DNA of 64,000 nucleotides from positions 141,115-205,114 of the forward strand of contig JAFGFJ010000006.1 in NCBI GenBank assembly GCA_016931155.1, given 5' to 3'. This document shows, piece after piece, positions 31,647 through 48,637 of this stretch. The notes under the pieces were generated by a model. The model had not been told where the DNA came from. It searched no databases and saw only the letters and a list, made by a program, of their open reading frames with translations. The DNA is from Candidatus Dojkabacteria bacterium. Lineage in GTDB: Bacteria > Patescibacteriota > Dojkabacteria > B142 > JAFGFJ01. Both the position numbers and the translations under genes were made by a program. Positions within the stretch are counted from its first letter, which is position 1; each line of letters starts with the position of its first letter.

Positions 31647-34600
31647 TTACTTTATCTCGAAGGTTAGTTTTTCCCCGTTCAGATTTATCTCATTTTTTTG
31701 TGGTGTATCTGATTCTATTATCTCATCAGCTGAGATGCCTTGTTTCAGCTCTTCATTGAGTGCTGCAAAAAACTCTTTAATCATTATACTTTCAGTATAA
31801 ATCTGGAGTTTGATTTTGTCCCCAATTTTCAACCCCTGTTTTTTTCTGGCTGCCTGAACAGTCCTTATGATTTCTCTAAGTGTTCCTTCCCGCCTGAGTT
31901 CTTCGGTAAGGGTGGTGTTTAGTGACACAGCGAGGTGTCCATTCATTGCTGCTTCTGTTATCCACCCTTTCTCTGCTGGTGACTCCTGTATTTCCTTTAC
32001 TTCCTTTACGTTAAGTTCTTCTTTAATAAGCTCTTTCATCCAGTCTTTTAAGTCCTGATCCTTTGTGTTACTTTTCACATAAGCAGCTGCAAGAGGCTGG
32101 CGGACTTTTGTGCCTGAGTTTATCCTTGCAGCCTGTCCCAAATTCACTATATCACGTACAATTTTCATCTCCGTTAGAAGCGGAGCATTCTTCTCCAGAA
32201 ATTCTATATCATCTTGAGGGTATGATGTCAGGTGTATTGATTCTTCAACTTCTATTAATTGGCTTTTTACCAGATTCTCATACATAGCCTCAGTAATGAA
32301 GGGTGCGAAAGGTGCAAGAAGTTTGATAAATTCAATAAGAACAAAGTAAAGAGTTTCAAAGGCCTTTATTTCTCCTTCTGCAAATCTGTCTCTGGATCTT
32401 CTTATGTACCATTTAGAGATATCTTCAAGAAGAGGAGAGAATTCTCTCGCAGCTGAGGGAATCTGGTATTCCTGCATGGCATTAGTTACTGCTTTTATTG
32501 TCTCCTGAAGTCTTGCTACAATCCATGTGTCGAGCTGATTATCGAGTTTCAGGGGTACTTTATAATTACAGAGACTCTCCTTGTCTTTCTGACTTGAAAA
32601 TGCGTTTGTTACCAGACTATTATTTGGGCTCCATTTGTGAATTTCGGCGTACGTTATGAGAAAAGAGTAACTATTCCACAGCATTAGAATAAAATTCTTT
32701 ATCTGATCTGCAATTTCTTCTTCATTTATATTCACATCATCTCCAACCATAACTTTACTCCCCATAAGATAAAGTCTTAAAGCATCTCCACCATATTTTT
32801 TAATTGTTTCTTTAGGATCCGGATAATTGCCATAATTTTTACTCATTTTTCTTCCATCATTCCCGAAAATTACACCTGTAGTGACAACATTCTTGAAGCT
32901 ATTTGTATCAAACATTGCTGTTGAAACAACGTGCATAACATAAAACCACGCTCTTGTTTGTGCGATATATTCAACTATGAAGTCAGCGGGGAAGTTCTTC
33001 TCAAAACTCTCCTTGTTTTCGAAGGGATAGTGAATCTGGGCATAAGGCATAGATGCACTATCCAACCACACATCAAGAACCTCTTTTATCCTGTGCATAT
33101 CCTTGCCGCATTTTTCGCATTTTACTACTATCTCGTCAATTTTTGGTCTGTGGAAATCAACTATGGTCTGGCCGGAAGCCTCTTCTATTTCTTTCTTTGA
33201 CCCAAAGACCATTGTATGACTGCATTCCGATCCGTTCTCGTGTCTCCATACAGGCATTGGCGTTGCCCAGTATCTTGTTCTTGATATGCACCAGTCAGGA
33301 GCGGAATCAATTCCTACCTTAAATCTGCCAGTCTTTAGATGATCTGGAACCCAATTTATCTTTTCGTTATTTTTCAGAAGACTTTGTTTCATATCCTGGA
33401 TGTTGATGAACCAGGAATCCTGTGCCCGGTGAATAAGGGGAGTCTGGCATCTCCAGCAGTAGGGATATCTATGTACTATTTTTTCATTATTGAACAACAA
33501 CTTCCTACTCTGCAGCTCCTCAACAATGTTTTTGTCTGCTTCTTTTACATAAATTCCTGCCCAGGGCTTAACCTCAGAGACGAACTTACCTGCATCATCC
33601 ACTCCGGTCATTATTGTAAGACCGGTTTCTCTTCCCATCTCTGTATCGATTTCTCCAAAGCCGGGGGCAGAGTGAACAATTCCTGTTCCTTCTTCCATGT
33701 GTACCATTCCTTTGAAAGAATATACTTTCCAGTCTTTGGAGTTGGGGGGAAAAAACTTGTACGGAGGTTCGTATTCGAGTCCGGTAAGCTCTTTGCCTTT
33801 AAAAGTATCAAGTATTTTATACTTTTCTTCTCCAGTAAATTTTTCACTAAAAACATATTCAAGTCTCTTTTTCGCAATAATTACTTTTTCTCCTTTAAAT
33901 CCGGCTATTACATAATCCTCTTCTTCATCAACAACTAATGCTCTGTTTGAAGGCAGTGTCCAGGGAGTAGTGGTCCAGGCGAGTATATATGTGTCTTTGA
34001 ATTTGCTCCCGTTTTTTACTTTAAATTTGACTGTCACTGCCGGATCTTCCATGTCAGTGTAGGAGTTGTCCATTGCAATTTCAAAGTTTGAAACAGGCGT
34101 TCCGCATCTCGTACAGTAAAGGGAAGTCCTTACTCCCTCGTATATAAATCCTTTATCGTAAAGTTGCTTGAAGACCCAGATTACAGACTCCATATAATTT
34201 TGATCGATTGTTTTGTATGCATTTTTGAAGTCAACCCAGCGTCCAATGTGATCGACGTACCATTCCCATTCTGCGGAAGTCTCCTCGGTGTATTTGTAGC
34301 ATTCGTCAATAAATTTCTGGATTCCGTAGCTTTCAATATCTCGACGGTTTTTAAGTTCCAGTTTTTTTTCCACTTTGTTTTCTATTGGTAGTCCGTGAGC
34401 GTCCCATCCCCAAACTCTCTCAACTCTTTTTCCTTGCATAGTCTGATACCTCGGAACAACGTCCTTTGCGATACTTGGGAGAAGAGAGCCGTAATGAGGG
34501 GTTCCAGTGATAAATGGAGGTCCATCGTAAAAAACATACTTGTTTTCCTCCGGTCTGCTTTCGACCGATTTTTCAAAGATTTTTCTGTCCTTCCAGAATT

Positions 34601-34658
34601 TCAGGATTTGTTCCTCCTGCTCTGCGAAATTTTGTCTTGGGTTTATTTTCTTAAACAT
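31647..34658 (-). CDS. ileS: isoleucyl-tRNA synthetase (type 2, eukaryote/archaea-like)
   Basis: 1003 aa. GPPFITGTPHYGSL (HIGH-region variant), KMSKNYGN (KMSKS), and type-2 architecture without the C-terminal zinc finger. Confidence 0.95.
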   Translation of the reverse strand: MFKKINPRQNFAEQEEQILKFWKDRKIFEKSVESRPEENKYVFYDGPPFITGTPHYGSLLPSIAKDVVPRYQTMQGKRVERVWGWDAHGLPIENKVEKKLELKNRRDIESYGIQKFIDECYKYTEETSAEWEWYVDHIGRWVDFKNAYKTIDQNYMESVIWVFKQLYDKGFIYEGVRTSLYCTRCGTPVSNFEIAMDNSYTDMEDPAVTVKFKVKNGSKFKDTYILAWTTTPWTLPSNRALVVDEEEDYVIAGFKGEKVIIAKKRLEYVFSEKFTGEEKYKILDTFKGKELTGLEYEPPYKFFPPNSKDWKVYSFKGMVHMEEGTGIVHSAPGFGEIDTEMGRETGLTIMTGVDDAGKFVSEVKPWAGIYVKEADKNIVEELQSRKLLFNNEKIVHRYPYCWRCQTPLIHRAQDSWFINIQDMKQSLLKNNEKINWVPDHLKTGRFKVGIDSAPDWCISRTRYWATPMPVWRHENGSECSHTMVFGSKKEIEEASGQTIVDFHRPKIDEIVVKCEKCGKDMHRIKEVLDVWLDSASMPYAQIHYPFENKESFEKNFPADFIVEYIAQTRAWFYVMHVVSTAMFDTNSFKNVVTTGVIFGNDGRKMSKNYGNYPDPKETIKKYGGDALRLYLMGSKVMVGDDVNINEEEIADQIKNFILMLWNSYSFLITYAEIHKWSPNNSLVTNAFSSQKDKESLCNYKVPLKLDNQLDTWIVARLQETIKAVTNAMQEYQIPSAAREFSPLLEDISKWYIRRSRDRFAEGEIKAFETLYFVLIEFIKLLAPFAPFITEAMYENLVKSQLIEVEESIHLTSYPQDDIEFLEKNAPLLTEMKIVRDIVNLGQAARINSGTKVRQPLAAAYVKSNTKDQDLKDWMKELIKEELNVKEVKEIQESPAEKGWITEAAMNGHLAVSLNTTLTEELRREGTLREIIRTVQAARKKQGLKIGDKIKLQIYTESIMIKEFFAALNEELKQGISADEIIESDTPQKNEINLNGEKLTFEIK

Positions 34659-34733
34659 TGTGAGTATTTGACTGTCAAGCTATCTCAGCAAAAAGATACT
34701 ACCACCTTTACTTCTGATTGGAAAGTTTTGGCA

Positions 34734-34955
34734 TTATTCCTCAGTCTCACTATCTTTTTTAGCTACTTCTCCTTCTATTACCTGTCCGTCTTTTTTTTCT
34801 TTTCCCAAAAGCTTGTCTCTTACGAGCTCAATAATTGCAGCAGTAAGAATAGCGATCAGGTCATCGAATAAAAGACCTGGAAGAAGATCAAGAGGCCATA
34901 TAAGGTATGCTATTGCGAGGATAAGAATAAAATGTTTTTTTATAAAATTTTTCAT
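34734..34955 (-). CDS. DUF1232 (YkvA-like) small membrane protein
   Basis: 73 aa. ILAIAYLIWPLDLLPGLLFDDLIAIL fits the DUF1232 pattern. Confidence 0.45.
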   Translation of the reverse strand: MKNFIKKHFILILAIAYLIWPLDLLPGLLFDDLIAILTAAIIELVRDKLLGKEKKDGQVIEGEVAKKDSETEE

Positions 34956-35039
34956 AAAAGTATTGACTATTTTTTTCTAATTTGATTATTTAAATTGTAA
35001 GATAAATTACTTAATTTTATTCTACAGGATTTTTCTCAC

Positions 35040-35390
35040 ATGAGCGACGATAATAAAAATAATACACAAGTTGAAGACTTGGAAGAGCAGGATATTATAC
35101 CTGACGAAAATGATTTGGAAGAGATAGAGGATGAGTCAGGAGATCTGGAAAATGATGATCTGGATTTAGATGAAAATGAAGTTTCTGCAAGTGATCACTT
35201 TTATTCAGATGATGTTGCGGCTGCAGCAATAGCAGATGTAAACCTTGATCCAGACAAACTTATTCCTCACGACGAAGATCCGGTTACTTCGGGAGAGATG
35301 GAAATTGGAGATTTGGATATTGATGAAGATGATACTGATCTTTCAGGAAGCGATGATGAGGAAAACGATGCGACATTTGATATAGATTAA
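35040..35390 (+). CDS. highly acidic (Asp/Glu-rich) hypothetical protein
   Basis: 116 aa, about 45% D/E, with no hydrophobic core and a poor RBS. Existence uncertain. Confidence 0.35.
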   Translation: MSDDNKNNTQVEDLEEQDIIPDENDLEEIEDESGDLENDDLDLDENEVSASDHFYSDDVAAAAIADVNLDPDKLIPHDEDPVTSGEMEIGDLDIDEDDTDLSGSDDEENDATFDID

Positions 35391-35893
35391 CATTTTGATT
35401 GACTATCAATACTACGCAAGCTTCAGTGTACTGATCAGCAGGGCAGGGTTCTGTTTATCCATAAACCCAACATTTCTGCTGTTGCAGAAATAATTGTATT
35501 TAGATAAAAAATGAGACAGTTGCGCTAATCTTTTTTGAGAAAGAACTGGGACACTAGGATGCTGTTAGGCTTTCATTTGTGTGTCCTGTGTACTATACCC
35601 CAGAGACTTTCTCGTTTAGCATTTTGCAACCATCTCACTTATAATAACGGAAGTAATTTATTTTTTTCACACCTCTATTGTCTTGTTATATAGGCATAGG
35701 GAGTGAAGATGAAACGATAGAAAACGCATTGATGTTGTAGCTAAAAGGGTCGAATGGTTATGTAAAACAGGCGATATACAATGGGTTTTCAGTAGTTGTG
35801 GTCTATTTACAATTTAATTAAATCATTTCAAAAGCTGGGACTCAGAATTAGTGGTATTGTTTTTACAGGTTCTATTTTTTAACTTACAAAAAA

Positions 35894-36715
35894 ATGGTTG
35901 CAAATTATAGGGCAGTAGTTGAGTCAAATGAAAAAATAAATGCGAAGATATATAAGACCGTTTTTAGACTGATTGAACCAGTTTTAATGGAATTTAAGGC
36001 TGGACAGTTTATTAATATTTTGGTTGCTCCGAACACTAGAAGAAGCTATTCAATAGGTTCAAGTCCTGCACAAAACACAAAGCTGGATATCTATACCGAT
36101 GTGACCCCGGGGGGTCCAGGATCAAAATTTTTTGAGGCGGCAAAAGCTGGAGATGAAGCAAGCTTTATTGGTCCTCTTGGGCTATTTGTGTATGAGGATA
36201 ATGAAAATAGCAAAGCTATATTCATCGCAACAGGCACTGGGCTGGCTCCATTTTATTCAATGATTTGCTATGCTCTTGAGACCCTGAAATCCAAAAGAGA
36301 GATAAAGCTTTACTTGGGCTTTCGCTATGAGGAGGACTGCTTTCTATTGGATGAGTTGGAAATGCTTGAGGAAAAGTACTCCAATTTCAGTTTTTGTCTC
36401 ACGCTTTCAAAGCCTTCCGATTCGTGGAGGGGGAATTCAGGTTATGTAACAAAGTATCTGGAGCAGGATTTAAAGGAGGACTTAGGGGAGGATTTAAAGA
36501 GTGGCTTGAAACAAAATTTGAAGGATGAGTTGGATCAGGACTTGAGGCAAAATTTGAAGAAGGAATTAAACCAGCAAATAAAACAGGACTCAAAAAAGAA
36601 AGAACTTCTAGATGCTTATATCTGCGGAGGGCAGGCAATGATTACTTCTGTGAACGAATTTTTAATAAATAAAGGAATAAGTCCGGATAATATATATTCT
36701 GAAAAGTTTTTTTAA
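35894..36715 (+). CDS. FNR-like FAD/NAD(P)-binding oxidoreductase with low-complexity insertion
   Basis: RRSYS (RxYS), GGPGS, GTGLAPF and ICGGQAM are ferredoxin-reductase-family motifs. About 50 aa of LKxxLxx heptads interrupt the NAD domain. Confidence 0.7.
   Translation: MVANYRAVVESNEKINAKIYKTVFRLIEPVLMEFKAGQFINILVAPNTRRSYSIGSSPAQNTKLDIYTDVTPGGPGSKFFEAAKAGDEASFIGPLGLFVYEDNENSKAIFIATGTGLAPFYSMICYALETLKSKREIKLYLGFRYEEDCFLLDELEMLEEKYSNFSFCLTLSKPSDSWRGNSGYVTKYLEQDLKEDLGEDLKSGLKQNLKDELDQDLRQNLKKELNQQIKQDSKKKELLDAYICGGQAMITSVNEFLINKGISPDNIYSEKFF
36458..36607 (+). repeat. degenerate 21-nt (7-aa) tandem repeats inside the FNR-like gene
   Basis: LEQDLKE DLGEDLK SGLKQNL KDELDQD LRQNLKK ELNQQIK. At DNA level gatttaaag and caaaatttg recur. 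The track also shows an antisense proline-rich ORF at 36399-36638. Confidence 0.5.
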
Positions 36716-37632
36716 TGGGTAAAGTTTTAAAAGTTTTTCATAAGAGAAATTTTGCTTATCTCTTCTTCCTTATCCTTTTTTTTCTTGGTGTGTATGGGAT
36801 GTATATTATTGCTCTGGCTTTTGCAGGAAAGATCGAAATTCCAAAGGGAATTATGCTTGGCAGGGTTCAGTTCAGGTTCTATGGAATGATCATAGTTTTA
36901 TCCGTACTGATCTCAGCAGTTATATTTGAAAGGCTCGCAGGAAAACTTGCTAAAACGGATCAAAAATTCCGGAAAGAAACCAGAAAGTTTGATATTTATG
37001 AAGCTCTCATATGGATAATTATTCCAGGTGTTTTGTTGGGGAGAATTTTTTACTTTGTGCAAAATGCATCGATGTCTGGTGTATTCCCAGAGATTTATAA
37101 AGTTTGGGATGGAGGATTATCAATTTTTGGCGGGGTACTTGGTGGTGTTCTTGGTATAATTATTTACCTGAAAAGATCAAAAATTAATACTTTTCCTACC
37201 CTCGATCATGTATTTATAGCGATCCCGCTTGGACATGCTGTCGGGAGATGGGCAAACTTTATAAACCAGGAGATATATGGTCTTCCCACAAATCTTCCCT
37301 GGAAAATGTATATATCACCGGAAAATAAAGTCGGAATTGCACCTGAGTTTGTTGGGGAGAAATTCTATCATCCTTTATTTTTGTATGAGTTTATTCTGAA
37401 TCTTGTTCTTTTTGGGGTTTTGTATTTTCTTTTTAAAGCAAAAAATAAGAGATTTGACGGATTTTTCATCTCGGTTTATTTGGTCGGATATGGACTCATT
37501 AGATTTTTTATTGAATTTTTAAGGTTAGATCCTAAAGTATTTTTGGGGCTTTCTGTGGCACAATATATTTCAGTTGTTATGGTTGTTTCTGGTACAGTGG
37601 TTTTAGTGTTAAAGCTAAGAAAGGGGAAATAG
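36715..37632 (+). CDS. lgt: prolipoprotein diacylglyceryl transferase
   Basis: 305 aa. WDGGLSIFGGVLGGVLG and HAVGRWANFINQEIYG are Lgt signatures. TAATG overlap with the upstream gene. Confidence 0.85.
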   Translation: MGKVLKVFHKRNFAYLFFLILFFLGVYGMYIIALAFAGKIEIPKGIMLGRVQFRFYGMIIVLSVLISAVIFERLAGKLAKTDQKFRKETRKFDIYEALIWIIIPGVLLGRIFYFVQNASMSGVFPEIYKVWDGGLSIFGGVLGGVLGIIIYLKRSKINTFPTLDHVFIAIPLGHAVGRWANFINQEIYGLPTNLPWKMYISPENKVGIAPEFVGEKFYHPLFLYEFILNLVLFGVLYFLFKAKNKRFDGFFISVYLVGYGLIRFFIEFLRLDPKVFLGLSVAQYISVVMVVSGTVVLVLKLRKGK

Positions 37633-37783
37633 TAAATTTTAAATATCTAACATGAGAACACTGTGGAAAAATGAACTGGGTTCTGAAGGAATAGAGACGA
37701 ACAAAATTCAAATGCACCAGGGCTGGATAAAGAGGACTTGGAGAACAACCCCCAAAAGAATTAAGGGATAATGAGGAATAGCA

Positions 37784-38857
37784 GTGGACACAATGCATAA
37801 ATCAAAGATAAAAACACTTTTTATAGGCACATCGGAGTTTGCTGTACCGACCCTTCGTGCCTTGGCTCTGAGTAATCTCGTGGAACTTGTTGGAGTGGTA
37901 ACTCAGCCTGACAGGCCGGCAGGAAGAAAACAGGAACTCGAAGAGCCTGCTGTGAAAAAGGCTTATTTGGAACTTAAAGACGAGGGTACTTTGGAAAGAG
38001 ATGTGGAAATCTTCCAGCCTGATAAAATAAAGAATGAGGCAGAGAAGATTTTGAAGTTGACTGAGCCAGAATTGATAATCGTGGCTTCCTATGGACAGAT
38101 TCTTCCCGCAGCTATTATCAATTATCCAAAGTACAAATGTCTCAATGTTCACGCTTCTCTATTACCTGATCTGAGAGGTGCGGTTCCCATCCCCATGGCG
38201 ATTCTTAAAGGCTACGAGAAGACAGGAGTATCGATCCCTGTTATGACGGAAGGACTTGATGATGGGTCGATTGTTGTACAAAAGGAGTTGAGGATTTCGA
38301 AGGATGATACGACAGAGTCTTTGACAAAAAAGCTTGCAAATCTCGGAGCGAAACTTCTTATCGAAGTACTTTCTTCCTGGATTAAAGGAGAAATTGAGCC
38401 GACTCCACAAGAGGAAAGTGCAGCAACTTATTGCTACACAAAAGATATTTCAAAGGGAAAAGCAGAGATTAACTTTGATAAACCCATTGATGAGATAGAG
38501 AGAATGATAAGAGCTTTTTTTCCGTGGCCTGTTGCGTGGATGTGGATAGAGCTTGGTGGGCAGAAAAAACGACTAAAGATATATATAGCGAAGAAAGTTG
38601 ATATGAATTGTTTTGAGAGTAGATACAAATCTGATGTTTCTATGTTTGAGAGTAAACAGGAGGATTTCAGAACACATATTTACAGGGTGCTTCATAAACT
38701 TTCTGTCGAAGAGAAAAGAAATTGGGTATTTATTTTGTTCGAAAAAAAGTTATTCCTAGTGACTAAAGACGGAGCAATTGAGTTTATGCGAATACAACTA
38801 GAGGGTAAGAAAGTAGGAACTGGTAAGAGTTATCTCTATCTTGCACAAAAGAAATGA
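37784..38857 (+). CDS. fmt: methionyl-tRNA formyltransferase
   Basis: LFIGTSEFAVPTLRAL, IIVASYGQILP and LNVHASLLPDLRGAVPI match Fmt. An insertion after the PDRPAGRKQ loop and a C-terminal extension give 357 aa. Confidence 0.8.
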   Translation: MDTMHKSKIKTLFIGTSEFAVPTLRALALSNLVELVGVVTQPDRPAGRKQELEEPAVKKAYLELKDEGTLERDVEIFQPDKIKNEAEKILKLTEPELIIVASYGQILPAAIINYPKYKCLNVHASLLPDLRGAVPIPMAILKGYEKTGVSIPVMTEGLDDGSIVVQKELRISKDDTTESLTKKLANLGAKLLIEVLSSWIKGEIEPTPQEESAATYCYTKDISKGKAEINFDKPIDEIERMIRAFFPWPVAWMWIELGGQKKRLKIYIAKKVDMNCFESRYKSDVSMFESKQEDFRTHIYRVLHKLSVEEKRNWVFILFEKKLFLVTKDGAIEFMRIQLEGKKVGTGKSYLYLAQKK

Positions 38858-39570
38858 ACATATCTGAGCTGCATAAATTTATTGATCAATGGAGAAAATT
38901 AAAATCATACCCTTCAGCAGGTGGGTGGCCGGATAAGCTTTTGCTCACTCCGGGTATCTGGAAAAAACTCTCAGAAATAATGAATTATACTAAAGGTGAT
39001 GGTCATGAGTATGCGGTAAACTTATTTTATGTTGACGGAGAAATTGTTGTTACACCATCTACAAGAGGTACTCGAGAGAGCGTGACTGCAAGGAACAAGA
39101 TAGAGGTGAAATATGAACCTGACAGGAAGGGATATTACTCGAAGAAAATATTCATTGATTCAAAGTTAGTTGGGAAAAGCGTGCTTACTCAAAGCAAAGT
39201 ACCAAAGAAAATAGAAATAAGTTATCTTTTTAATGTTCACACTCATCCTGTTTGGAAAAATCTGGGTCAAAAGGGAGTTTCTGTCGGATCTGAAAGCTAC
39301 AGTTTTTTCTCCGATACCGATATAAGAAGCTTTTTATTGTCACCTGCACTTGTAATGGGACTTCTTACTGATAGATTGTGGCTTGTGTGTAAAACAAGTG
39401 GATCTATAAAAATATTGGGTGAGAATGGGATAGAGAGGCTTTATGATATCAGTAAAGATATTTTTGAGGGGAAAGGAAATGCTGAATCTTTGATAAAAGA
39501 CAAGCTGGCTAACTGGGGTCTTGTGTTTTACAGGGCGGGAAAAAATCAAAGTCTGGTGAAGGTTAATTGA
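38854..39570 (+). CDS. hypothetical protein
   Basis: 238 aa, with a 4-nt overlap with the fmt stop. HTHP...SDTD loosely resembles a JAMM motif but the spacing is wrong. Confidence 0.45.
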   Translation: MNISELHKFIDQWRKLKSYPSAGGWPDKLLLTPGIWKKLSEIMNYTKGDGHEYAVNLFYVDGEIVVTPSTRGTRESVTARNKIEVKYEPDRKGYYSKKIFIDSKLVGKSVLTQSKVPKKIEISYLFNVHTHPVWKNLGQKGVSVGSESYSFFSDTDIRSFLLSPALVMGLLTDRLWLVCKTSGSIKILGENGIERLYDISKDIFEGKGNAESLIKDKLANWGLVFYRAGKNQSLVKVN

Positions 39571-39663
39571 GTCCTGCCGTTACCTGGCAAACTGTCAGGA
39601 GATTTAAAAGTGTTACCCGGTAAAAGATAAAACAGCCTGCCTATGCTATAATTCAGGATTCTT

Positions 39664-40455
39664 TTGGCTCATAGAAAAAGAAAAGATATGGGAAAAACAA
39701 ATACGGTTGATCTTCTTTTTGAACTGATAAAAACCAATTTTAAACTCAGGTACAACAATTCAGTACTGGGTTTTGTCTGGGTTCTTCTAAAGCCATTTTT
39801 AACATTTTTAGTTTTGTACATTGTTTTTTCCAACTTCAGGGGGAATTCGTCCATCGATAATTACACTATTTATCTTCTATCGGGAATAATACTTTTTACT
39901 TTTATTAACGAAGGAGTACTTTTTGGACTAAACTCTCTCCTTGATAAAGCAAACATTATTCTTAAAGTTAATTTCAATAAGATAATTGCAGTGCTCAGTT
40001 CGGAGATCATGGCTCTGGTAAATTTTCTGATCAATCTTCTGATTTTGTCTATCTTTATTATTTTTAATCCAGTAAACATTTCTGTTCTGAGTTTTTTTTA
40101 CTTATTGTTCATACTTTTTGTAATCTCGTTAGGATTAGTTTCAATTTCTTTGTTCTCCAGTATTCTTATCTTAAAATTCAGGGATTTGCAGAATATTGCT
40201 GAACTTGCAATGCAACTTTTATTTTATGGTTCAGCTATTTTTTATCCCGTAGAGCAAATCCCCGGGAGGTTTCAATGGCTTATTAAACTGAATCCACTCT
40301 ATAATCTGATTGATGCCGCAAGAAATGCTCTTGTGCAGGGGGAGATTATCAATACGAAAGAAGTGCTGATCATTTTTTTTGTTATTGTTTTCTTCTTCTC
40401 AATTGGGGCAATCTTCTTTTCCAGGAATGTAAAAAAGGTAGCTGAATACTTCTAA
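39664..40455 (+). CDS. ABC-2 type polysaccharide/teichoic-acid exporter permease (Wzm/TagG-like)
   Basis: 263 aa and 6 TM. The N-terminal LIKTNFKLRYNNSVLGFVWVLLKP is typical of ABC-2 permeases. Confidence 0.7.
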   Translation: MAHRKRKDMGKTNTVDLLFELIKTNFKLRYNNSVLGFVWVLLKPFLTFLVLYIVFSNFRGNSSIDNYTIYLLSGIILFTFINEGVLFGLNSLLDKANIILKVNFNKIIAVLSSEIMALVNFLINLLILSIFIIFNPVNISVLSFFYLLFILFVISLGLVSISLFSSILILKFRDLQNIAELAMQLLFYGSAIFYPVEQIPGRFQWLIKLNPLYNLIDAARNALVQGEIINTKEVLIIFFVIVFFFSIGAIFFSRNVKKVAEYF

Positions 40456-40456
40456 T

Positions 40457-41326
40457 ATGGGAAATCTATTCGAACCAAAGGTCTCAATTGTAGTAGTGAA
40501 TCTCAATGGTGAAGATGATACTTTCGAATGTGTGGACTCATTGAAAAAGATTGGCTACAAGAATTATGAAATTGTTGTTGTTGATAATGGCTCTTCAAAG
40601 AAGAATTACGAAAGACTTAAGAAAAACTTAAAAGGCGTAACAATTCTCAGGAAAGAGGAAAATCTGGGTTTTACGGGAGGCTATAATGTTGGTATAAGAT
40701 ACGCAAAGGCATCAGGTTCCAGATATGTTGCCATATTAAATAACGATACTGTGGTAGATGAAAAATGGCTTTCTGAATTTGTAAAACTTGCTAAAGAAGA
40801 AAAGAAATTTGGAGTGATAGGGTCAAAATCGTGTTACTACGGTCAAAGAGAAATTATCCAGACCGCTGGTCTTGCCTTCAATAAGTTCTGGGCTACTTTT
40901 TATGAAATCGGAAACGGTCTTAGAGATGAGGATCATTATAATGAAAACAGAGAAGTAACAGCTGTGAGTGGAGTTTCTATGCTGATGGATTTAAAAAACC
41001 CGCTAGAGGATATATTATTTGATGAGGAACTATTTCTCTATTACGAGGATGTTGATCTATGTTTGAGAATGAAGAGAAATGGTTATAAAGTGCTGTATTG
41101 TGCCAAGTCAAAAGTCTATCATAAGATTTCAAGGACAGCCAAAAAGGTGAAAGGTCTTAGCTTGTATTGGGGGATAAGGAACAGGCTTAGAGTCATAAGA
41201 AGATACTATGGTTTTATTCCATATGTCTGGGTATTTATCAGACTTTTGGTAAAGGGGGTAGTAGATTTGTCTGTGATGGATAAGGTATCAGCTAAGGCTT
41301 ATTTTAGGGGATTATGTAATAAATAA
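40457..41326 (+). CDS. family 2 glycosyltransferase
   Basis: VSIVVVNLNGEDDT, VVVDNGS and ILNNDTVVDEKWL (DxD region). Confidence 0.8.
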   Translation: MGNLFEPKVSIVVVNLNGEDDTFECVDSLKKIGYKNYEIVVVDNGSSKKNYERLKKNLKGVTILRKEENLGFTGGYNVGIRYAKASGSRYVAILNNDTVVDEKWLSEFVKLAKEEKKFGVIGSKSCYYGQREIIQTAGLAFNKFWATFYEIGNGLRDEDHYNENREVTAVSGVSMLMDLKNPLEDILFDEELFLYYEDVDLCLRMKRNGYKVLYCAKSKVYHKISRTAKKVKGLSLYWGIRNRLRVIRRYYGFIPYVWVFIRLLVKGVVDLSVMDKVSAKAYFRGLCNK

Positions 41327-41454
41327 TGAAAAATTTAGTTGAGATAAAAAATCTTTCTAAGGTGTTTGAAGTACCAAGAGAGAAAAAACAGACCTTGAAG
41401 AGCCATTTTCTGGATTTATTTAGAAGAACGAGTAAGGAATTTATACTATTATAG
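41326..41454 (+). pseudogene. 43-codon remnant of an ABC transporter ATPase (Wzt/TagH-like) N-terminus
   Basis: MKNLVEIKNLSKVFEVPREKKQTLKSHFLDLFRRTSKEFILL then stop. It parallels the N-terminus of the full wzt-like gene on the opposite strand and is coupled to GT2 by a TAATG overlap. Confidence 0.5.
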
Positions 41455-41462
41455 TAAGGAAT

Positions 41463-42668
41463 CTATTGTTCCCATTTACTACTGACTAGGATATTCCCTC
41501 TTTGTCCGTTGTGAGGAGACTTAGTATTTACAGTAAAAATGGTTCCCTTGGGATAGAAGTCATAATACTTTGTCTCACTTTCACCAAATACAACAAAATT
41601 TACAAAGTACTTCCCCGATAACAGCGATGTATTATAGATATTAAACGAAATACTTCTTTTTTCCTTGTTTATTAATATCTTTGCGTACTTTGTATTTGTT
41701 CCGAATAAGTAGAAACCAGTCTTTTCATCATATATACCCAATCCTATGTGTAGGTTCTCGACGCCCTTATTTATTTTATAATCAATTCTGAACTTTATAT
41801 TATCACCCACTGTGAAGTTGTTCCCATCTTTTTTATTCTGATCTTCTATTGCTATTTTCGAAATTCTTACTTGTCCTGTGCCAGGCCTCTCTTTTTCTGG
41901 TGATCTATTTTCTGATTTTATTTCAGATTTATTGACCAATTCATGGTAGTGAAATATTATGTCTCTCACTTCCCCTTCTTTTGCAATTTTCCCGTCCACT
42001 AGTAGAACAGCTCTATCGGAAAACTCTTCTACTTGAGATAAAGAATGAGAAACAAATATGATTGTCTTTCCCAGCTTTTTCATTTTCCTAAAGTATTCAA
42101 AGCACTTTTCTTGAAAACCCATATCTCCAACAGCCAAGACTTCATCAAGTATATATATGTCAGCATCTGCTTTGATAGCTATTGAGAACGCTAGTCTCAC
42201 CTGCATTCCAGAAGAGAAGTTTTTAATGGGAACGTCTAGAAATTCTCTGATTTCAGCGAAATCAACAATCTCATTAAATTTTTCGTTGATAAATTTTCTA
42301 GTCATTCCAAGAATTGTTCCATTCAAGTAAATATTTTCTCTAGCACTTAATTCTGGGTTAAAGCCAACGCCAAGCTCTAAGAAGGGTATTATTTTGCCTC
42401 TCGTAACTATATTTCCTGAATCTGGAAGATATATTTGTGAAATAAGTTTTAACAAGGTCGATTTCCCGGATCCATTTTTTCCGATTATGCTGATAAACTC
42501 TCCTTTGTTTATTTCGAGAGTTAATCTGTCTATTGCTATAAATTTTTTTTTCCTTATTGGCCTGAAAAGATTGAAAAATCGAGATTTTATTGTGTCTCTT
42601 TTTTCACTGACTATTTCAAAACTTTTCGTTACATTATCTATTTTAATTGCTGTTTCAGTTTTCTTCAT
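41463..42668 (-). CDS. ABC transporter ATP-binding protein with C-terminal Wzt-like carbohydrate-binding domain
   Basis: Walker A GKNGSGKSTLLK, signature FSSGMQVRLAFS, Walker B ILDEVLAVGD, plus a ~150-aa beta-rich C-terminal domain. Confidence 0.8.
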   Translation of the reverse strand: MKKTETAIKIDNVTKSFEIVSEKRDTIKSRFFNLFRPIRKKKFIAIDRLTLEINKGEFISIIGKNGSGKSTLLKLISQIYLPDSGNIVTRGKIIPFLELGVGFNPELSARENIYLNGTILGMTRKFINEKFNEIVDFAEIREFLDVPIKNFSSGMQVRLAFSIAIKADADIYILDEVLAVGDMGFQEKCFEYFRKMKKLGKTIIFVSHSLSQVEEFSDRAVLLVDGKIAKEGEVRDIIFHYHELVNKSEIKSENRSPEKERPGTGQVRISKIAIEDQNKKDGNNFTVGDNIKFRIDYKINKGVENLHIGLGIYDEKTGFYLFGTNTKYAKILINKEKRSISFNIYNTSLLSGKYFVNFVVFGESETKYYDFYPKGTIFTVNTKSPHNGQRGNILVSSKWEQ

Positions 42669-42735
42669 TAGTGGTATTTTGTATAAATTTTATTCTTATT
42701 GAAATACAGAAGTCGATTTCACCAGTATGATTATT

Positions 42736-43686
42736 TTACTCTGATAATTTTCCTTTAATTTTTTGTAGAGAATTAATGACTTTCGTCAGACCAGTTTTTT
42801 GAGATACCTTAATTATGTGTTTATTTTTACTAAGAATTTCAGATAATTGCTCATTTTGATTCCTTAAAGAAGTTAATTCTTCTTGCTGTTCTACTGTTTT
42901 CCTTTCTAGATTATGCAAAAAAGTTAGCCTTTCTGTGAGATCGGGAGTTTCACTATAGCTAAAGATATTTTTGGGAATTCTACTTAAAGAGCTACGGTTA
43001 GAAGTCGTCAGATTAATGTAGTTTTGAAAAGAATCCTCGGCAAGCAGATACTGCTCTTTATAATATTTTGAGAATATTCTATCTTCAATATAACTTGGAT
43101 CTAAACCTTGAGATTGGATTGCGTCAAGCAAAGAATATAGTCCACGAAAAATTACAAAATCTCTTGGAATTGGGAAATTCCAAGTCCACTCATAATCGAT
43201 GTTATAAATAATTTTTCTATTTATTGTGAAATTATCGAGGTTCAGATCAAGAATTCCTGGTTTAATCCATGCAGTCTCTTCATTTAGGTGATGGCCAAAA
43301 ATATTATTAAACTCCTTATTTATAATGGGAGGTTTTTTTATCTGATCCAATTTGTTAATAATCTCTTCAAGATAAAACTTAAATAGTTCATCTATATCTT
43401 TATAATCTCTTTGTTGAACACTCCTATACATTCTATTAAGTAGATTCTCCCCATTTATATATTTAAAAATTACTCTGTTATCAACTATGTTAGGTTTTAA
43501 TATTTGAAAGGGGAGATGGTAACTCGAAAGGAGTTTGTATTTGTTGTAAAAACTTCTTAGGAATTGTAGAGATGAAGGGAATGCAATTTTGTGTACAAGT
43601 AGGGATGTGCCATTACTAACAAAAGCAGTCATTAATCTAAACTTTTCCTTTCTATTTTGGTTATGTCTTACGTATAAAACTTTCAT
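42736..43686 (-). CDS. hypothetical protein with C-terminal coiled coil
   Basis: 316 aa. No motif recognised. Sits in the glycan locus. Confidence 0.45.
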   Translation of the reverse strand: MKVLYVRHNQNRKEKFRLMTAFVSNGTSLLVHKIAFPSSLQFLRSFYNKYKLLSSYHLPFQILKPNIVDNRVIFKYINGENLLNRMYRSVQQRDYKDIDELFKFYLEEIINKLDQIKKPPIINKEFNNIFGHHLNEETAWIKPGILDLNLDNFTINRKIIYNIDYEWTWNFPIPRDFVIFRGLYSLLDAIQSQGLDPSYIEDRIFSKYYKEQYLLAEDSFQNYINLTTSNRSSLSRIPKNIFSYSETPDLTERLTFLHNLERKTVEQQEELTSLRNQNEQLSEILSKNKHIIKVSQKTGLTKVINSLQKIKGKLSE

Positions 43687-43695
43687 ATAACTTAC

Positions 43696-44586
43696 TTATT
43701 TCTTAATACTAATTTGAGACTTTTTTGCTACGATTAGAAATGCGTTAGAAAATATGTCAAAATACCCTGATTCAATTAATTGCCTTGCGACCCTTGCCTC
43801 ATTAAATAGTTCTGTTCTGTTGGTAGAATGTTTGGATGGATATATTCCTGCCTTCGGAAGAAAATTATTTGTGGGCAGATACTGGTCACTAAATATTTCA
43901 TCAGGAAAGTGATAGTGAGGTAGGGGATAATAGAAAAAGATATCTGAAAATCCTGTATCCTTGAGCATTTTACTGATTTCATCTTTACTGTAGGTTTGTA
44001 TGCCGTTATGTTTTGGGTACCCCTCGATACTCTCAAAAAACCCTACAGTGTGATCCTCTGGAGCTCCAGCCCAGTATTTTAGTCCAAACTTATTTTCTAT
44101 GGCAAGAATAAACTCACCATTTGTCTTCATAAGAGAACAGATTTTTTTGAGTAGCGTTAAGGCTGGATTTTTTGTTTTAATAAATAACCCTGAATATTCT
44201 AAGACACCGATAGCAGTGATAAAATCATACTTACTATCCGTTTCATATTTCATGACGTCGATGGGGAAAACCTTTAAATTTTTTAACTTTTTATATCTTT
44301 CTTTTATGATTTTTGCTCTTCTATCTGAAATTTCAATACAATCTACATGTTTCACTCTTGAGGTAAAAAGTCCTGTCAGTGCTCCACAGCCCCCGCCAAT
44401 TTCAAGCAAATTACCGCTTGAATGGAAATCATACCAATTAAGTAAGTTTTCTCTTCCTGGTGACAGATGAGCTATGAAAGGCCAAATCCCTGTTCTAATG
44501 AGATTATCCCTCTTTCGCTGTGATCCAACAGATTCCAGTAAAGCTTTTTCCACTTCATCCCCATCTGAATAAACCATAGTATTCAT
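43696..44586 (-). CDS. class I SAM-dependent methyltransferase
   Basis: LEIGGGCGALTGLF (motif I), CIEIS, and a typical fold length. Confidence 0.7.
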   Translation of the reverse strand: MNTMVYSDGDEVEKALLESVGSQRKRDNLIRTGIWPFIAHLSPGRENLLNWYDFHSSGNLLEIGGGCGALTGLFTSRVKHVDCIEISDRRAKIIKERYKKLKNLKVFPIDVMKYETDSKYDFITAIGVLEYSGLFIKTKNPALTLLKKICSLMKTNGEFILAIENKFGLKYWAGAPEDHTVGFFESIEGYPKHNGIQTYSKDEISKMLKDTGFSDIFFYYPLPHYHFPDEIFSDQYLPTNNFLPKAGIYPSKHSTNRTELFNEARVARQLIESGYFDIFSNAFLIVAKKSQISIKK

Positions 44587-44677
44587 ATTTGCTTAAGATG
44601 TTGTAATGTTATCACTAACTAGGACATTAAAAAATTGAATTGCTAAACCTTTGTTAATTAGATTCACTTTAAATGTG

Positions 44678-47600
44678 CTATATACCATTTAACTCACTGA
44701 AGGAGTTATTGTATCTTACTCTTTGCGTTGTGAATATATTTTGATCGGAATAAATTATTACTGGTCCTCCAGTTTGTTCATTGTATTGTGGAGTTATAGT
44801 CTGACCGGGGTTAACTCTTCCATCAAAGATAATAACGCCTTGAACCGTGATTATTACAATCGCTGTGGAATTAATCGATGGATTCCCAATAAGAATCCAT
44901 GCCTCTCTTATAACGCCACCCCCGTCACTGTCGTCATACCATGTATAGAACTGTTTCTTGTTTAATTTATTGTTATCAATAGATTTTGTTTCATTAAAGG
45001 AGTTGATATATCTGACTCTTTGTGTCGCATATATGGGTTGCGTACTAGTTACTACTATTGAACCTGTACAACATAGCTCATCCCATTGTACTGAGTTGCT
45101 ACTATTCGCATACACATTTATTACCTTATCGGGTTGTCCTGGAATTCTTAATGTGACCGATGTGTTTGAATCATTAGGATTGCCTATTAGTATGTATGCT
45201 TCTCTATGAATGCCTCCATTTTCGCTGTCATCGTACCAAGGGAAAAAGTGATTACTTTCTATATCTGAATTAGTTACAGCCATTATTTCGTTGAATGAAT
45301 CCATAAATTTAACTCTTTGAGAAGAATAAATATTTACTGGTATACCAGTACTTTTTTCTACAGCAGTTATCTTTACAGGGCCACCTCTTTGTTCGTCAAA
45401 TTGAAAACAAGTGCTTTCTCCGGGGGATGCAGACTGTGTATGTAATATAACTTGTCCGCTTGTATTTTTGAACTGAACTGTAACATCAACGTTTGCAGAA
45501 ACAGTTTCTGGTATTCCTGCGATGATCCATGCCTCTCTTACGACTCCATCGTCACTATCATCATACCAGGGGAAGTACAGCAAATTGGCTAACTCACTTG
45601 AAGGGAAACCCGTGATTTCTTCAAATGATTCGTTATACCTTACCCTTACCGAAGAGTAGATTGGTATACCGTTAGTACTGTTAACAACAATTGGTCCTCC
45701 GGACTGTTCATTAAACTGTGGAGTGATTCTTTCTCCTGGGGCTAACGTTTGATCTATTTCCAAGACACCTTTGTACCAAACCTCTATACTAGCAACTTCA
45801 GCTTGGCTTTGGTTTGCTATTATAAGCCATGCTTCTCTTGGTATACCAATGTCACTGTCGTCATACCATGGGAAGTAGTATTTTGTATCAAGATTTCTTT
45901 CAGTATATCCTACTAAGGAGTTGTCCAATTGCAGGAGCCCGTAACCGGTTTGTGTATCAAACCCTGATGATGCTACATCTTGTGCACTGCTCCTTAATCT
46001 AATATTAATATCTATTGGTGTTATGTTCGGGTGGATACTTTTCATGAGTGCAACCGCTGCACTCACCTGAGGTGCGGCAAAACTTGTACCAATTACTGTT
46101 GTAGGTGAAGTGTTTGAAGTGAAGGCATTGAAAAGGTTTACATTCGTTTCATCTGAACAGTTGTTTTTATTGGGATAGCATGAATAAGATTGTGATGCAA
46201 TTTGGGGTCCACTATCTCCAACAGGGGCAACAAGATCCAACTCGTCTCCATAGTTTGAGTAACTTGCACGGTTGTCATTCGCATCTGTCGCTCCGACTGC
46301 TATTACATTTGGAAATGAAGCAGGGAAGTAGTTTGCAATATCCGAGTTGTCATTTCCTGCCGCAGCTACAACAACAACTCCGGCATTGACAGCGTCATTA
46401 ATTGCCACTTGCATCATAGGGTCAGTCCCGACTCCTCTGAGGCTCATGTTTATAACATCAGCACCATTTGCTACAGCATATTCAATAGCCTGTGAAATTA
46501 CGAAAGAATCAGCAACTGTCCTGTAGTCTTTGCTTGAGTTTGAACACGTAAGATCAAGATTCCCGGAAGCATCCTGGCACATTGATCTGTCATTCGGATA
46601 AAAAACTTTAATTGGCATGATGCTTGCATTGTGTGCTATTCCAATTACCTTGTTTGGTGCAGTATCACCTGTTCTCCCCGCTAGAATTGTTGTAACAAGA
46701 GTGCCATGTCCATAGTCATCATTTGCATGGTCGATTTTGGCAAGCTCATTTGCATTACAGTCATTGGCAGGATTTCCATCAATAGCTCTAAGCATGCAAA
46801 AATAATCCTGCACGGCATCATATGGACTTACAATATTTACACCACTTAATTCTGAGGATTGTGAATATTGCCTTTCATAACCTTTATAACTGCCGTTTAC
46901 GAAGGTACCATCTTGTGTATTATTTGTTGGATACTCAAGGTAGATTCCATTAAATTTTCCAACAGTATAGGAGTTATCATTTCCAGCGTCATATACATAG
47001 TTTTCATAGGATGCCCCTGTATCAAGAACAGCAACAACCACGGAGGGGTCGCCTCCACAGGAGTTGTCACTTGTACATCCTCCCATTTCTTTCCATGCCT
47101 CAGGAAGTTTGGTTTTTTCAGCTGTCCAGTGAGTAGCAGTATCATAGTCGCTAGGGATAGATCTTTCAGGGTCAGTATTGTTCCAGCTCTCAGTTTTGTA
47201 AATATAGATTGGCTGAGGATTAGTCTCGGGAGCCACAAGAAGAATCTCTCCTATGAGTTGATCTATTTTTGAATTGTCGACCTTATAGATTATTTTATTT
47301 CCGAGTTCTGCTAAGCTCTCTACACCACGTGACAGTGTTAGTAATTTTTCTTTGGTGAGTGCGTTCGATTGGGAAGAGTTGAGTGCTACCCGTGCCTTTG
47401 TTCCATCAATAATGTAGTTTCTATTGTCTATTAAATTGTTCCTTTTAGCATCAGCTGATCGAAGATTGGAGTTTAGTGGTTTCATTTGGACTGCACGAGA
47501 AGCAACAGTTTCTAGTTGATTGTAGATTCTTCCAGGACAGGCTGTTGCCGCAAGATCTCTGTGTCCGTAGAGTCCAGTTCCGCTTTTTGGGTCACCACCT

Positions 47601-48637
47601 TGCCATACTGCATTGAAATTGTTCAGTTGGGATAAAGCAGATATGAGTTTCGTGAGAGCTTCCATTGAGGCCTGTGTGGGATCCTGCGAGACATAGTTCC
47701 CAAGGATTGAGATTCCTATGCTTCCGGTGTTTGGGACTGCATGAGCACCAACAACTCCGTTTCCTCCAGATCTGCCTTCATAAATATTTCCATACGGATC
47801 AATCATGTAGTTGTAGCCAACATCAGTCCAGGTTCCTTTGCTCGGATCAGTGCAGTTTGGCCATGAACCCGAGTTATCTGAACATCTGTTGTAGTGATAA
47901 TTATAAACTGCCATTACCGTGTTTTTTGGATTTGCCATGTCAACACTTGTTGCTGTGTGATGAACAACTATGCGGTTAACATTTGCGATCGTCGGAGCCC
48001 ACGGGCTTGCTGTAGGAGCTCCCCATTCTTCTCTTGTAATGAGATCGAACCCCATTTGTGAAAATAATTTTTCCTTGTAAGCTCTTTCTGCCTGAGTGCT
48101 TGCAAATTCCTCTGGTATAGAAAAGGAAGTGTCTGAAGTGCTGTTGAATTCATATTTGCTGATAATAAATTCTTTTTCTCCATCGTAATAGAACTCTATC
48201 TCTTTAACTCCTTCTGAAAATATGAACAAATCAGAAACACTGTTCTTGCTTGTATCAAAGGAAGTGTCGTCTCCCATAAATACATCTTCGCTCTCAATCT
48301 TGAGGTACTTGGTAAAAGTATCATCTCCTTTTTTTACTCTGACTATTATTCCTTCAATATTTCCAGAGATGGAGAAGCCGTAGTAGGTTTTATCGAGGGT
48401 TTCAATTTTTGTTGGTGTGCTCCCTGAGAGGAAAATTCCTGCCTTTTGAATTAAGCCTGCTTCTTCGTATGCTTCGGGATCAGAGAGATTTGTACCTCCC
48501 ATTTTCGGGAAAGAGGAGTCTTCCGCATTTACTTTCTGAATTGGAGCAGGGGAGAAACTCAATGTCAGTACGAAGGTCAGAAAGATAATGAACAGATGTT
48601 TTGTTTTTTTTCTGGCTTCGAAAAAAGATTTATGCAA
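44678..48637 (-). CDS. secreted multidomain protein: PGRP/Amidase_2 N-acetylmuramoyl-L-alanine amidase + subtilisin-like S8 peptidase + four ~100-aa C-terminal repeats
   Basis: Signal peptide. Amidase_2: VVHHTATS, GYNYMIDPYGNIYEGR, GAHAVPNTGSIGISILGNY, ACPG. S8 triad: VAVLDTGAS, HGTLVTTILAG, GTSFAAPQVSAAVALM. Then four repeats each beginning [YF]FPWYDDSDxGxxREAWI. Confidence 0.8.
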   Translation of the reverse strand: MHKSFFEARKKTKHLFIIFLTFVLTLSFSPAPIQKVNAEDSSFPKMGGTNLSDPEAYEEAGLIQKAGIFLSGSTPTKIETLDKTYYGFSISGNIEGIIVRVKKGDDTFTKYLKIESEDVFMGDDTSFDTSKNSVSDLFIFSEGVKEIEFYYDGEKEFIISKYEFNSTSDTSFSIPEEFASTQAERAYKEKLFSQMGFDLITREEWGAPTASPWAPTIANVNRIVVHHTATSVDMANPKNTVMAVYNYHYNRCSDNSGSWPNCTDPSKGTWTDVGYNYMIDPYGNIYEGRSGGNGVVGAHAVPNTGSIGISILGNYVSQDPTQASMEALTKLISALSQLNNFNAVWQGGDPKSGTGLYGHRDLAATACPGRIYNQLETVASRAVQMKPLNSNLRSADAKRNNLIDNRNYIIDGTKARVALNSSQSNALTKEKLLTLSRGVESLAELGNKIIYKVDNSKIDQLIGEILLVAPETNPQPIYIYKTESWNNTDPERSIPSDYDTATHWTAEKTKLPEAWKEMGGCTSDNSCGGDPSVVVAVLDTGASYENYVYDAGNDNSYTVGKFNGIYLEYPTNNTQDGTFVNGSYKGYERQYSQSSELSGVNIVSPYDAVQDYFCMLRAIDGNPANDCNANELAKIDHANDDYGHGTLVTTILAGRTGDTAPNKVIGIAHNASIMPIKVFYPNDRSMCQDASGNLDLTCSNSSKDYRTVADSFVISQAIEYAVANGADVINMSLRGVGTDPMMQVAINDAVNAGVVVVAAAGNDNSDIANYFPASFPNVIAVGATDANDNRASYSNYGDELDLVAPVGDSGPQIASQSYSCYPNKNNCSDETNVNLFNAFTSNTSPTTVIGTSFAAPQVSAAVALMKSIHPNITPIDINIRLRSSAQDVASSGFDTQTGYGLLQLDNSLVGYTERNLDTKYYFPWYDDSDIGIPREAWLIIANQSQAEVASIEVWYKGVLEIDQTLAPGERITPQFNEQSGGPIVVNSTNGIPIYSSVRVRYNESFEEITGFPSSELANLLYFPWYDDSDDGVVREAWIIAGIPETVSANVDVTVQFKNTSGQVILHTQSASPGESTCFQFDEQRGGPVKITAVEKSTGIPVNIYSSQRVKFMDSFNEIMAVTNSDIESNHFFPWYDDSENGGIHREAYILIGNPNDSNTSVTLRIPGQPDKVINVYANSSNSVQWDELCCTGSIVVTSTQPIYATQRVRYINSFNETKSIDNNKLNKKQFYTWYDDSDGGGVIREAWILIGNPSINSTAIVIITVQGVIIFDGRVNPGQTITPQYNEQTGGPVIIYSDQNIFTTQRVRYNNSFSELNGI
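44681..45895 (-). repeat. four tandem ~100-aa protein repeats (FPWYDDSD...REAW...PG...GGP...QRV(R/K)...SF.E) of unrecognised family
   Basis: Repeat boundaries are about 45593-45895, 45266-45592, 44966-45265 and 44681-44965. Conserved positions are W-Y-D-D-S, REAW, PG, E(Q)xGGP, QRV and SF.E. Confidence 0.6.

Follow-up and report, generated by a model that had tools for sequence, protein, structure and literature searches.

Remnants of genes left behind by rearrangement are well described in polysaccharide gene clusters; among 178 serogroups, gene remnants have been listed for 9 clusters and an unusual gene location or direction for 5, and both were read as traces of relatively recent events (PMC7685785). 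The glycan exporters that concern us here consist of the permease Wzm and the ATPase Wzt. For the Aquifex aeolicus WzmWzt a segment made up of beta-strand 1 and the gate helix has been described (PMC6379404), and it is this segment that is covered by the gene fragment reported below. Recognition of the glycan cap by the carbohydrate-binding domain (CBD) of Wzt has also been reported (PMC9445017). In Escherichia coli O9a the protein WbdD caps the finished O-antigen with methyl phosphate, and its domain make-up and the functional coupling of WbdD to the carbohydrate-binding module of Wzt have been described (PMC3482155). Here we analyse a glycan export locus of Candidatus Dojkabacteria (assembly GCA_016931155.1, contig JAFGFJ010000006.1, positions 141,115 to 205,114 of the forward strand), and by the window we mean this whole stretch of 64,000 nucleotides (nt). 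In the window a 42-codon open reading frame (ORF), hereafter the stub, follows a glycosyltransferase gene and faces an intact wzt on the opposite strand. We find it probable that the stub is the dead remnant of a wzt that once completed a wzm-glycosyltransferase-wzt operon, and that a different wzt was brought next to it by rearrangement. The features on which this reading is based are the following.

39664-40455, plus strand: wzm, the ABC-2 permease of a glycan exporter, 263 amino acids (aa) from a TTG start, with an in-frame ATG at 39688 (Pfam ABC2_membrane, E 3.5e-19).
40457-41326, plus strand: family 2 glycosyltransferase (GT2), 289 aa, between wzm and the wzt position (Pfam Glycos_transf_2, E 9.6e-23).
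41326-41454, plus strand: the stub, assigned as 5' remnant of the resident wzt by a Wzt N-terminal hidden Markov model (HMM) and by its syntenic position.
41455-41462, no strand: junction between two convergent stop codons, 8 nt, TAAGGAAT, as read from the sequence.
41463-42668, minus strand: intact wzt, 401 aa, nucleotide-binding domain (NBD) and C-terminal CBD (Pfam ABC_tran, E 3.5e-21; Wzt_C, E 2.1e-23).

The stub translates as MKNLVEIKNLSKVFEVPREKKQTLKSHFLDLFRRTSKEFILL and is closed by a TAG. This gives 42 sense codons plus the stop, where a sequence-only reading of the same DNA had counted 43 codons. The same reading had described a TAATG overlap with the GT2 gene and homology to the N-terminus of an ABC ATPase, and both descriptions were borne out; the ATG of the stub and the TAA of the GT2 gene have one base in common, and a BLASTP comparison with the neighbouring Wzt gave 14/29 identities (E 3e-8). 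When the stub was compared by BLASTP with 120 Wzt homologues it matched 115, in 113 cases at the N-terminus, and the top match reached 61% identity (E 7e-12, 50 bits). An N-terminal HMM, built on positions 1-54 of 119 Wzt homologues, was run on 1001 six-frame segments of the window. The stub scored 48.7 bits (E 3e-14) and the intact Wzt 57.3 bits, while the best of the remaining 999 segments scored only 6.5 bits. Given a one-residue gap, the tail of the stub (KE-FILL) aligns with the family pattern K.IF.AL, and the homology to Wzt appears to extend through the last codon.

By aligning the intact Wzt of the window to A. aeolicus Wzt, and with the published structural description (PMC6379404), we mapped the stub to beta-strand 1, the aromatic position of the A-loop (adenine-stacking) and the cytosolic gate helix. 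It ends before beta-strand 2 and before Walker A, which lies at about residue 63 in the intact gene. Walker A, Q-loop, ABC signature, Walker B, H-loop and Wzt_C are all absent from the stub ORF, and we found no sequence that continues it in any reading frame or at any other place in the window. As it stops before Walker A and has no complete NBD, the stub cannot be an ATPase. Judged by its sequence, it is an unambiguous Wzt N-terminus, and it is a remnant and not a functional member of the Wzt/TagH-type family; hence we suggest that 41326-41454 should be labelled a wzt pseudogene fragment rather than a gene. In split-half HMM tests the fit of the stub to the family fell at the 3rd to 12th percentile of intact N-termini, at the low end and inside the range, and 13 of the 119 intact genes had a mean identity below that of the stub. 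Since intact genes also show fits this low, the stub has decayed little, and the truncation therefore looks not very old. Two departures from family-conserved residues were seen, NPF being replaced by DLF and FxAL by FILL.

The rival explanation that survives best is that the 42-residue ORF has been kept as a translated small protein, acting on Wzm as a free gate-helix peptide, or as a short coupled ORF by which translation of GT2 is tuned or the convergent junction is protected. The frame stays open for just the region of homology, its start codon overlaps the stop of GT2 in the manner of intact operons, the family fit is inside the range of intact genes as noted, and the gate helix that the ORF covers contacts the permease in A. 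aeolicus WzmWzt (PMC6379404). On the other hand, every ATPase motif is missing, conserved residues have been changed at the two places named, the region yielded neither RNA structure nor terminator, and an open frame of 42 codons is what a recent truncation is expected to leave. A word-index search returned no homologous free-standing ORF, though a 42-aa query is too short for such a search. Upstream regions in this genome show no consistent Shine-Dalgarno motif, and the ribosome-binding context of the stub is accordingly uninformative. Having found nothing positive in support of a functional 42-residue peptide, we consider it unlikely.

That a wzt once stood at the position of the stub is supported by the relatives of this locus. 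The closest syntenic relative, L003 (GCA_034680565.1), has in one orientation the genes for an FNR-like protein, Lgt, Fmt, a 229-aa protein, Wzm, GT2, Wzt, a methyltransferase and a 400-aa protein. Its wzt (395 aa) begins on the stop codon of GT2 (ATGA), at the same position as the stub. The locus with the most similar GT2, L004, belongs to a contig that ends 26 nt past this gene, and here ATGATGGACGACAATATAGCAATAAAAGTT, corresponding to MMDDNIAIKV, is a Wzt start that again overlaps the GT2 stop (ATGA). Co-oriented wzm-GT2-wzt is also carried by L005, a further Dojkabacteria contig from the same run. Thus a co-oriented wzt comes right after the equivalent GT2 in all three relatives, with start and stop overlapping in two of them. 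Comparison by tblastn showed the window to be colinear with L003 from 34332 to 41439, that is, to a point within the stub, and the window proteins in this stretch are 44-63% identical to their L003 counterparts. The values for single proteins are 62.9% for Wzm, which also has a weak NCBIfam match to the Wzm/RfbD permease, and 48% for GT2, which is 50% identical to the GT2 of L004 (P0002). The stub itself is identical to residues 8-41 of L003 Wzt at 17 of 34 positions. Because the relatives carry wzt at this place and the colinearity with L003 stops inside the stub, we take the stub to mark the former site of the resident wzt. This comparison of syntenic loci agrees with the sequence-only reading insofar as it had seen here the scar of a rearrangement that broke an ancestral wzm-GT-wzt operon. 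It should be noted that a search of 5.8 billion proteins gave no relative above 50% identity for either GT2 (nearest 50%) or Wzt (nearest 48%), and that a search of genome contigs with the 238-aa upstream protein as anchor gave no relative. Identical GT2 and Wzt proteins are named Candidatus Dojkabacteria at NCBI.

The present arrangement is exceptional. Of the comparison loci, 45 yielded both wzm and wzt, and every one of these has the two genes side by side on the same strand; in the window one wzm lies 1 kb from the intact wzt, on the opposite strand and in another run of genes. In L003 there is an additional gene for a 320-aa phosphodiesterase/sulfatase-like protein (L003:4381-5343) between the gene for the 229-aa protein, whose counterpart in the window has 238 aa, and wzm; the window has instead a 93-nt gap (39571-39663), which holds a TATAAT-like hexamer just upstream of wzm.

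The convergent gene at 41463-42668 encodes, as had been stated before, a complete ABC ATPase. Its 401-aa product has both ABC_tran and Wzt_C, it contains GKNGSGKST, FSSGMQVRLAF, IYILDE and VSH, and it shows full-length similarity to a structurally characterised Wzt, the closest solved structure being that of A. aeolicus Wzt (8dku/7k2t; for 8dku E 1.8e-65 over residues 8-358). The nearest database relatives are merely 44-48% identical. No further piece of wzt was found in the window. Between the stub and the intact wzt, the codon-aligned 5' regions are 48% identical in amino acids and 56% in nucleotides. By codon position the identity is 52%, 83% and 34% for the first, second and third positions, the third positions being saturated, and identical runs reach at most 6 nt. 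Pairwise alignment thus recovered the similarity at the protein level (the 14/29 identities given above) and not at the DNA level, where blastn found no similarity between the two. As the stub and the intact gene are so deeply diverged, at least two distinct wzt genes must have existed, one of which lost its body.

These numbers also bear on the proposal that the inverted gene is a copy of the same wzt. If the ancestral wzt, or a fresh copy of it, had simply been flipped and its first 42 codons left behind, the stub and the intact gene would be expected to adjoin, to converge and to be homologous, as they indeed do. However, the inverted gene keeps a complete N-terminus of its own, which scores the 57.3 bits given above on the N-terminal HMM, and the 5' regions are far too different for a recent copy, with 34% identity at third positions and nothing found by blastn. 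Further, inversion of a wzt-methyltransferase-kinase segment predicts the order kinase, methyltransferase, wzt along the plus axis, and the order seen is wzt, kinase, methyltransferase. Both sequence divergence and gene order contradict a simple inversion, which we regard as very improbable; the idea of a flipped copy is thereby not upheld.

We considered equally improbable that two unrelated contig ends were wrongly joined at 41455-41462. The tight junction of 8 nt (9 bp had been reported before) sits exactly at a switch of strand in a metagenome-derived genome, as a chimera might. Nevertheless both sides belong to one glycan cluster and have similar composition, and a 25-kb contig of the separate Logan assembly of run SRR13394437 crosses the junction with 100% identity across the 401 nt compared, although this run may be the same sample as that behind the NCBI record. 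Because a separate assembly spans the junction without a difference, a chimera at this place is unlikely. As for the remaining explanation, a phase-variable (shufflon-like) inversion in which N-terminal inverted repeats would serve to switch the body of wzt between two promoters, a 5' fragment facing a full inverted gene does fit the geometry of some invertible systems, yet we dismiss it as hardly credible since the two 5' regions (56% identity) share no identical stretch above 6 nt, no significant inverted repeat pairs them, both assemblies show a single orientation and no recombinase gene was found among the neighbouring genes scanned, a scan that fell short of the whole window.

Around the junction no terminator-like hairpin was found, and RNA folding of 41310-41480 was no better than that of shuffled sequences on either strand (z +0.21 and +0.86). 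A promoter scan gave 48 sites against 49.4 expected and so carried no information. As there is no terminator between the convergent runs, transcription probably runs on into the region of the stub from both directions. A search for insertion sequence (IS)-like elements and for long inverted or direct repeats flanking 41455-44680 was negative.

The intact wzt is preceded on its own strand by two further genes.

42736-43686, minus strand: kinase-fold protein with a C-terminal coiled coil, 316 aa, assigned by invariant residues, an AlphaFold 2 (AF2) model and Foldseek.
43696-44586, minus strand: methyltransferase dependent on S-adenosylmethionine (SAM), 296 aa, first gene of the methyltransferase-kinase-wzt run (Pfam Methyltransf_23/12/11/25; Methyltransf_23 E 2.6e-9).

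The gaps within this run are 9 nt (methyltransferase to kinase-like gene) and 67 nt (kinase-like gene to wzt), and more minus-strand genes reach out to 52519. How the inverted ATPase gene is expressed, which had been raised as a puzzle, is thus nothing special, as wzt is the final gene of a closely spaced run and the three genes may well be co-transcribed.

No Pfam or NCBIfam model matched the 316-aa protein; its family has 1248 cluster representatives at E<=1e-3. In this family K33, D147-x4-N152 and D164-Y-E-W are invariant (K33, D147, N152 and D164 in 61 sequences), which is a hallmark of kinase-like phosphotransferases. The AF2 model (pLDDT 92.5) has a long C-terminal helix over residues 250-315 (250-297 and 299-315), and its top Foldseek matches were APH(3')-Ia, RioK1, MTR kinase, macrolide kinases, choline/ethanolamine kinases and LicA (E 5e-6 to 1e-4). 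Profile matches in PDB to the tail of the protein (residues ~190-312) were coiled-coil proteins. The minus-strand pair hence offers a SAM methyltransferase module, a kinase-like fold with the Lys, the D-x4-N and the metal-binding Asp, and a C-terminal coiled coil. By analogy with WbdD we propose that the kinase-fold protein would be the phosphotransferase part of a chain terminator.

The behaviour of this family in other genomes was investigated in 80 loci with a kinase-like homologue (L007-L086), collected with an alignment of 8 sequences as seed and spanning Patescibacteria, Lachnospiraceae, Paenibacillus, Deltaproteobacteria and others. In 73 of them the kinase-like gene directly follows a homologue of the window methyltransferase, while wzt is present in 63 and wzm in 45. 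Fusions of the two modules occur in P0293 and P0303, with the kinase-like domain behind the methyltransferase, and other members of the kinase-like family carry two GT2 domains fused to their C-terminal side. The commonest order is wzm-wzt-methyltransferase-kinase-GT2 on a single strand. The minus-strand order of the window, methyltransferase-kinase-wzt, is not the mirror image of the wzt-methyltransferase-kinase order in L003, L006 and most other loci. Only in one comparison locus, from Woykebacteria (L029:478-4216, methyltransferase-kinase-wzm-wzt), does the terminator pair come before the transporter genes. The proteins encoded after the methyltransferase in L003 (400 aa) and L006 (407 aa) are very distant members of the kinase-like family (family profile E 1.3e-4 and 1.6e-14, respectively) and are 36% identical to each other. 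The kinase-like proteins of the window and L003 could not be aligned by BLAST, and the methyltransferases are 29% identical. As flanking housekeeping genes are 44-63% identical between the two loci, these two results suggest that the terminator pair now present is of another type than that of L003.

We now return to the reading that the stub is what is left of the resident wzt. In the history that we propose, a rearrangement would have removed this wzt beyond codon 42 together with whatever came next, which in the closest syntenic relative is the methyltransferase and the kinase-like gene. The break would then have come to lie at a distance of 8 nt from the 3' end of another, converging wzt, so that a different module of cap writers and cap reader (methyltransferase, kinase-like protein and Wzt) was juxtaposed or exchanged and the old wzt cut off. 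As to mechanism, this could have been either a deletion between two pre-existing convergent glycan clusters or the acquisition of, and replacement by, a foreign cassette; composition, repeats and the available relatives fit the one as well as the other. If E. coli O9a is a guide, the methyltransferase and the kinase would together cap the finished glycan with methyl or methyl phosphate, and the C-terminal domain of Wzt would read this cap before export; the chemistry of the cap is in this case argued from analogy. The new Wzt probably powers the old Wzm, which would place the two halves of the transporter on opposite strands. That methyltransferase, kinase and wzt stay together makes functional sense, because the CBD of Wzt must match the cap made by the terminator.

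Several observations weigh against this history. There is no wzm within the minus-strand run, whereas a complete imported module of the Woykebacteria type would bring one with it. There is no composition anomaly and there are no flanking mobile-element repeats, hence no positive sign of horizontal acquisition; GC content and GC content at third codon positions of the minus-strand genes are within the spread of the window, with the kinase-like gene mildly low (z -2.3 and -1.8). With the nearest relatives at 50% (GT2) and 48% (Wzt) the ancestral state is reconstructed across a large distance. Finally, the stub is 50% identical to L003 Wzt and the intact Wzt ~53% at its N-terminus (a hand count of the printed sequences; 47% overall). 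As the two are equidistant from L003 Wzt, identity alone does not reveal which is the orthologue.

Further, we speculate that the writer pair and the cap-reading Wzt were swapped as one module, giving a hybrid transporter of old Wzm and new Wzt and switching the terminal signature of the glycan, that the wzt segment after the gate helix is a recurrent break point (here and in L013, a Moranbacteria locus treated below), and that the stub may persist for coupled translation or as a gate-helix peptide. Taken as a whole this is a tentative proposal, and we think it more doubtful than not.

Some other features of the window should be mentioned. Next to the methyltransferase-kinase-wzt run, at 44678-48637 on the minus strand, lies the gene for a 1319-aa protein with the domains of an N-acetylmuramoyl-L-alanine amidase and of a subtilase (S8). 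Four diverged repeats of ~100 residues with the recurring peptide FPWYDDSD are located in its C-terminal part, and repeats with ~300 nt spacing are seen in the DNA of this gene at 44887-45883. On the plus strand, the FNR-like oxidoreductase at 35894-36715 has 273 aa compared with 231 aa in L003 (FAD_binding_6/NAD_binding_1 in L003), and the extra length is apparently a charged repetitive stretch, LKEDLGEDLKSGLKQNLKDELDQDLRQNLKKELNQQIKQD. The 238-aa protein (38854-39570, plus strand) is 58% identical to its L003 counterpart, has an FNVHTHP motif and no Pfam or NCBIfam match, and adjoins Fmt in every Dojkabacteria locus seen. No tRNA genes and no Rfam families at gathering threshold were detected in the whole 64-kb window (1-64000).

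Compared with known systems, the window pair has the same parts as E. coli O9a WbdD, namely a SAM methyltransferase, a protein-kinase-like domain and a C-terminal coiled coil in the same order and linked to a Wzt with CBD, but unlike in WbdD the modules are split into two genes. WbdD was not matched in PDB by searches with the kinase-like protein or its family profile (E<=10), nor by the methyltransferase search (E<=0.01), and it was not among the top 50 Foldseek matches of the kinase-fold model, whose best folds were small-molecule kinases (APH, choline kinase, RIO). The resemblance is thus architectural only, and we use it as a working analogy and not as a statement of family membership. Nevertheless a family that has no Pfam or NCBIfam model and is linked to a methyltransferase and to wzm-wzt across phyla is a promising candidate for a general chain terminator that is WbdD-like and encoded by two genes, and it may prove more useful than the scar that led to it.

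With the WzmWzt exporters of A. aeolicus and E. coli O9a/O8 the window shares a Wzt of which the NBD and most of the CBD can be aligned, the Wzt_C domain and the Wzt-type signature FSSGMQVRLAF. It differs from them in having wzm and wzt on opposite strands and in separate gene runs, an arrangement found in 0 of the 45 comparison loci. A scan of 84 other loci (926 kb, 67 intact wzt) with the N-terminal profile revealed one other orphan fragment, in Candidatus Moranbacteria (L013:1791-3071). This Wzt 5' fragment of ~27 codons encodes MSENIAIQVNNVSKTFRIPHEKISTLRG and is ~80% identical in nucleotides to the 5' end of an intact, co-oriented wzt downstream (L013:3078-4346), from which it is separated by a nucleotidyltransferase (NTP_transf_2) and HEPN pair resembling a toxin-antitoxin system (MNT-HEPN). 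In both cases a wzt fragment in a genome of the candidate phyla radiation (CPR) was cut before the Walker A region. The routes differ, as the Moranbacteria case is a recent duplication or insertion, while the window shows the juxtaposition of deeply diverged genes.

A close parallel is found in the O-antigen and other surface-glycan clusters of E. coli and Salmonella, where, as in the window, a truncated biosynthesis or export gene lies at a recombination junction near genes of unusual direction. Unlike those remnants, the one in the window belongs to a CPR host (Dojkabacteria), is the 5' end of a transporter ATPase and has no IS or repeat at the junction. The scar in the window is real, but of an ordinary type in a new host group. 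It suggests that the surface-glycan clusters of the Dojkabacteria, which are uncultured and streamlined, are reshuffled modularly like the O-antigen clusters of well-studied bacteria, and that the transporter ATPase and its matching chain terminator may behave as an exchangeable unit.

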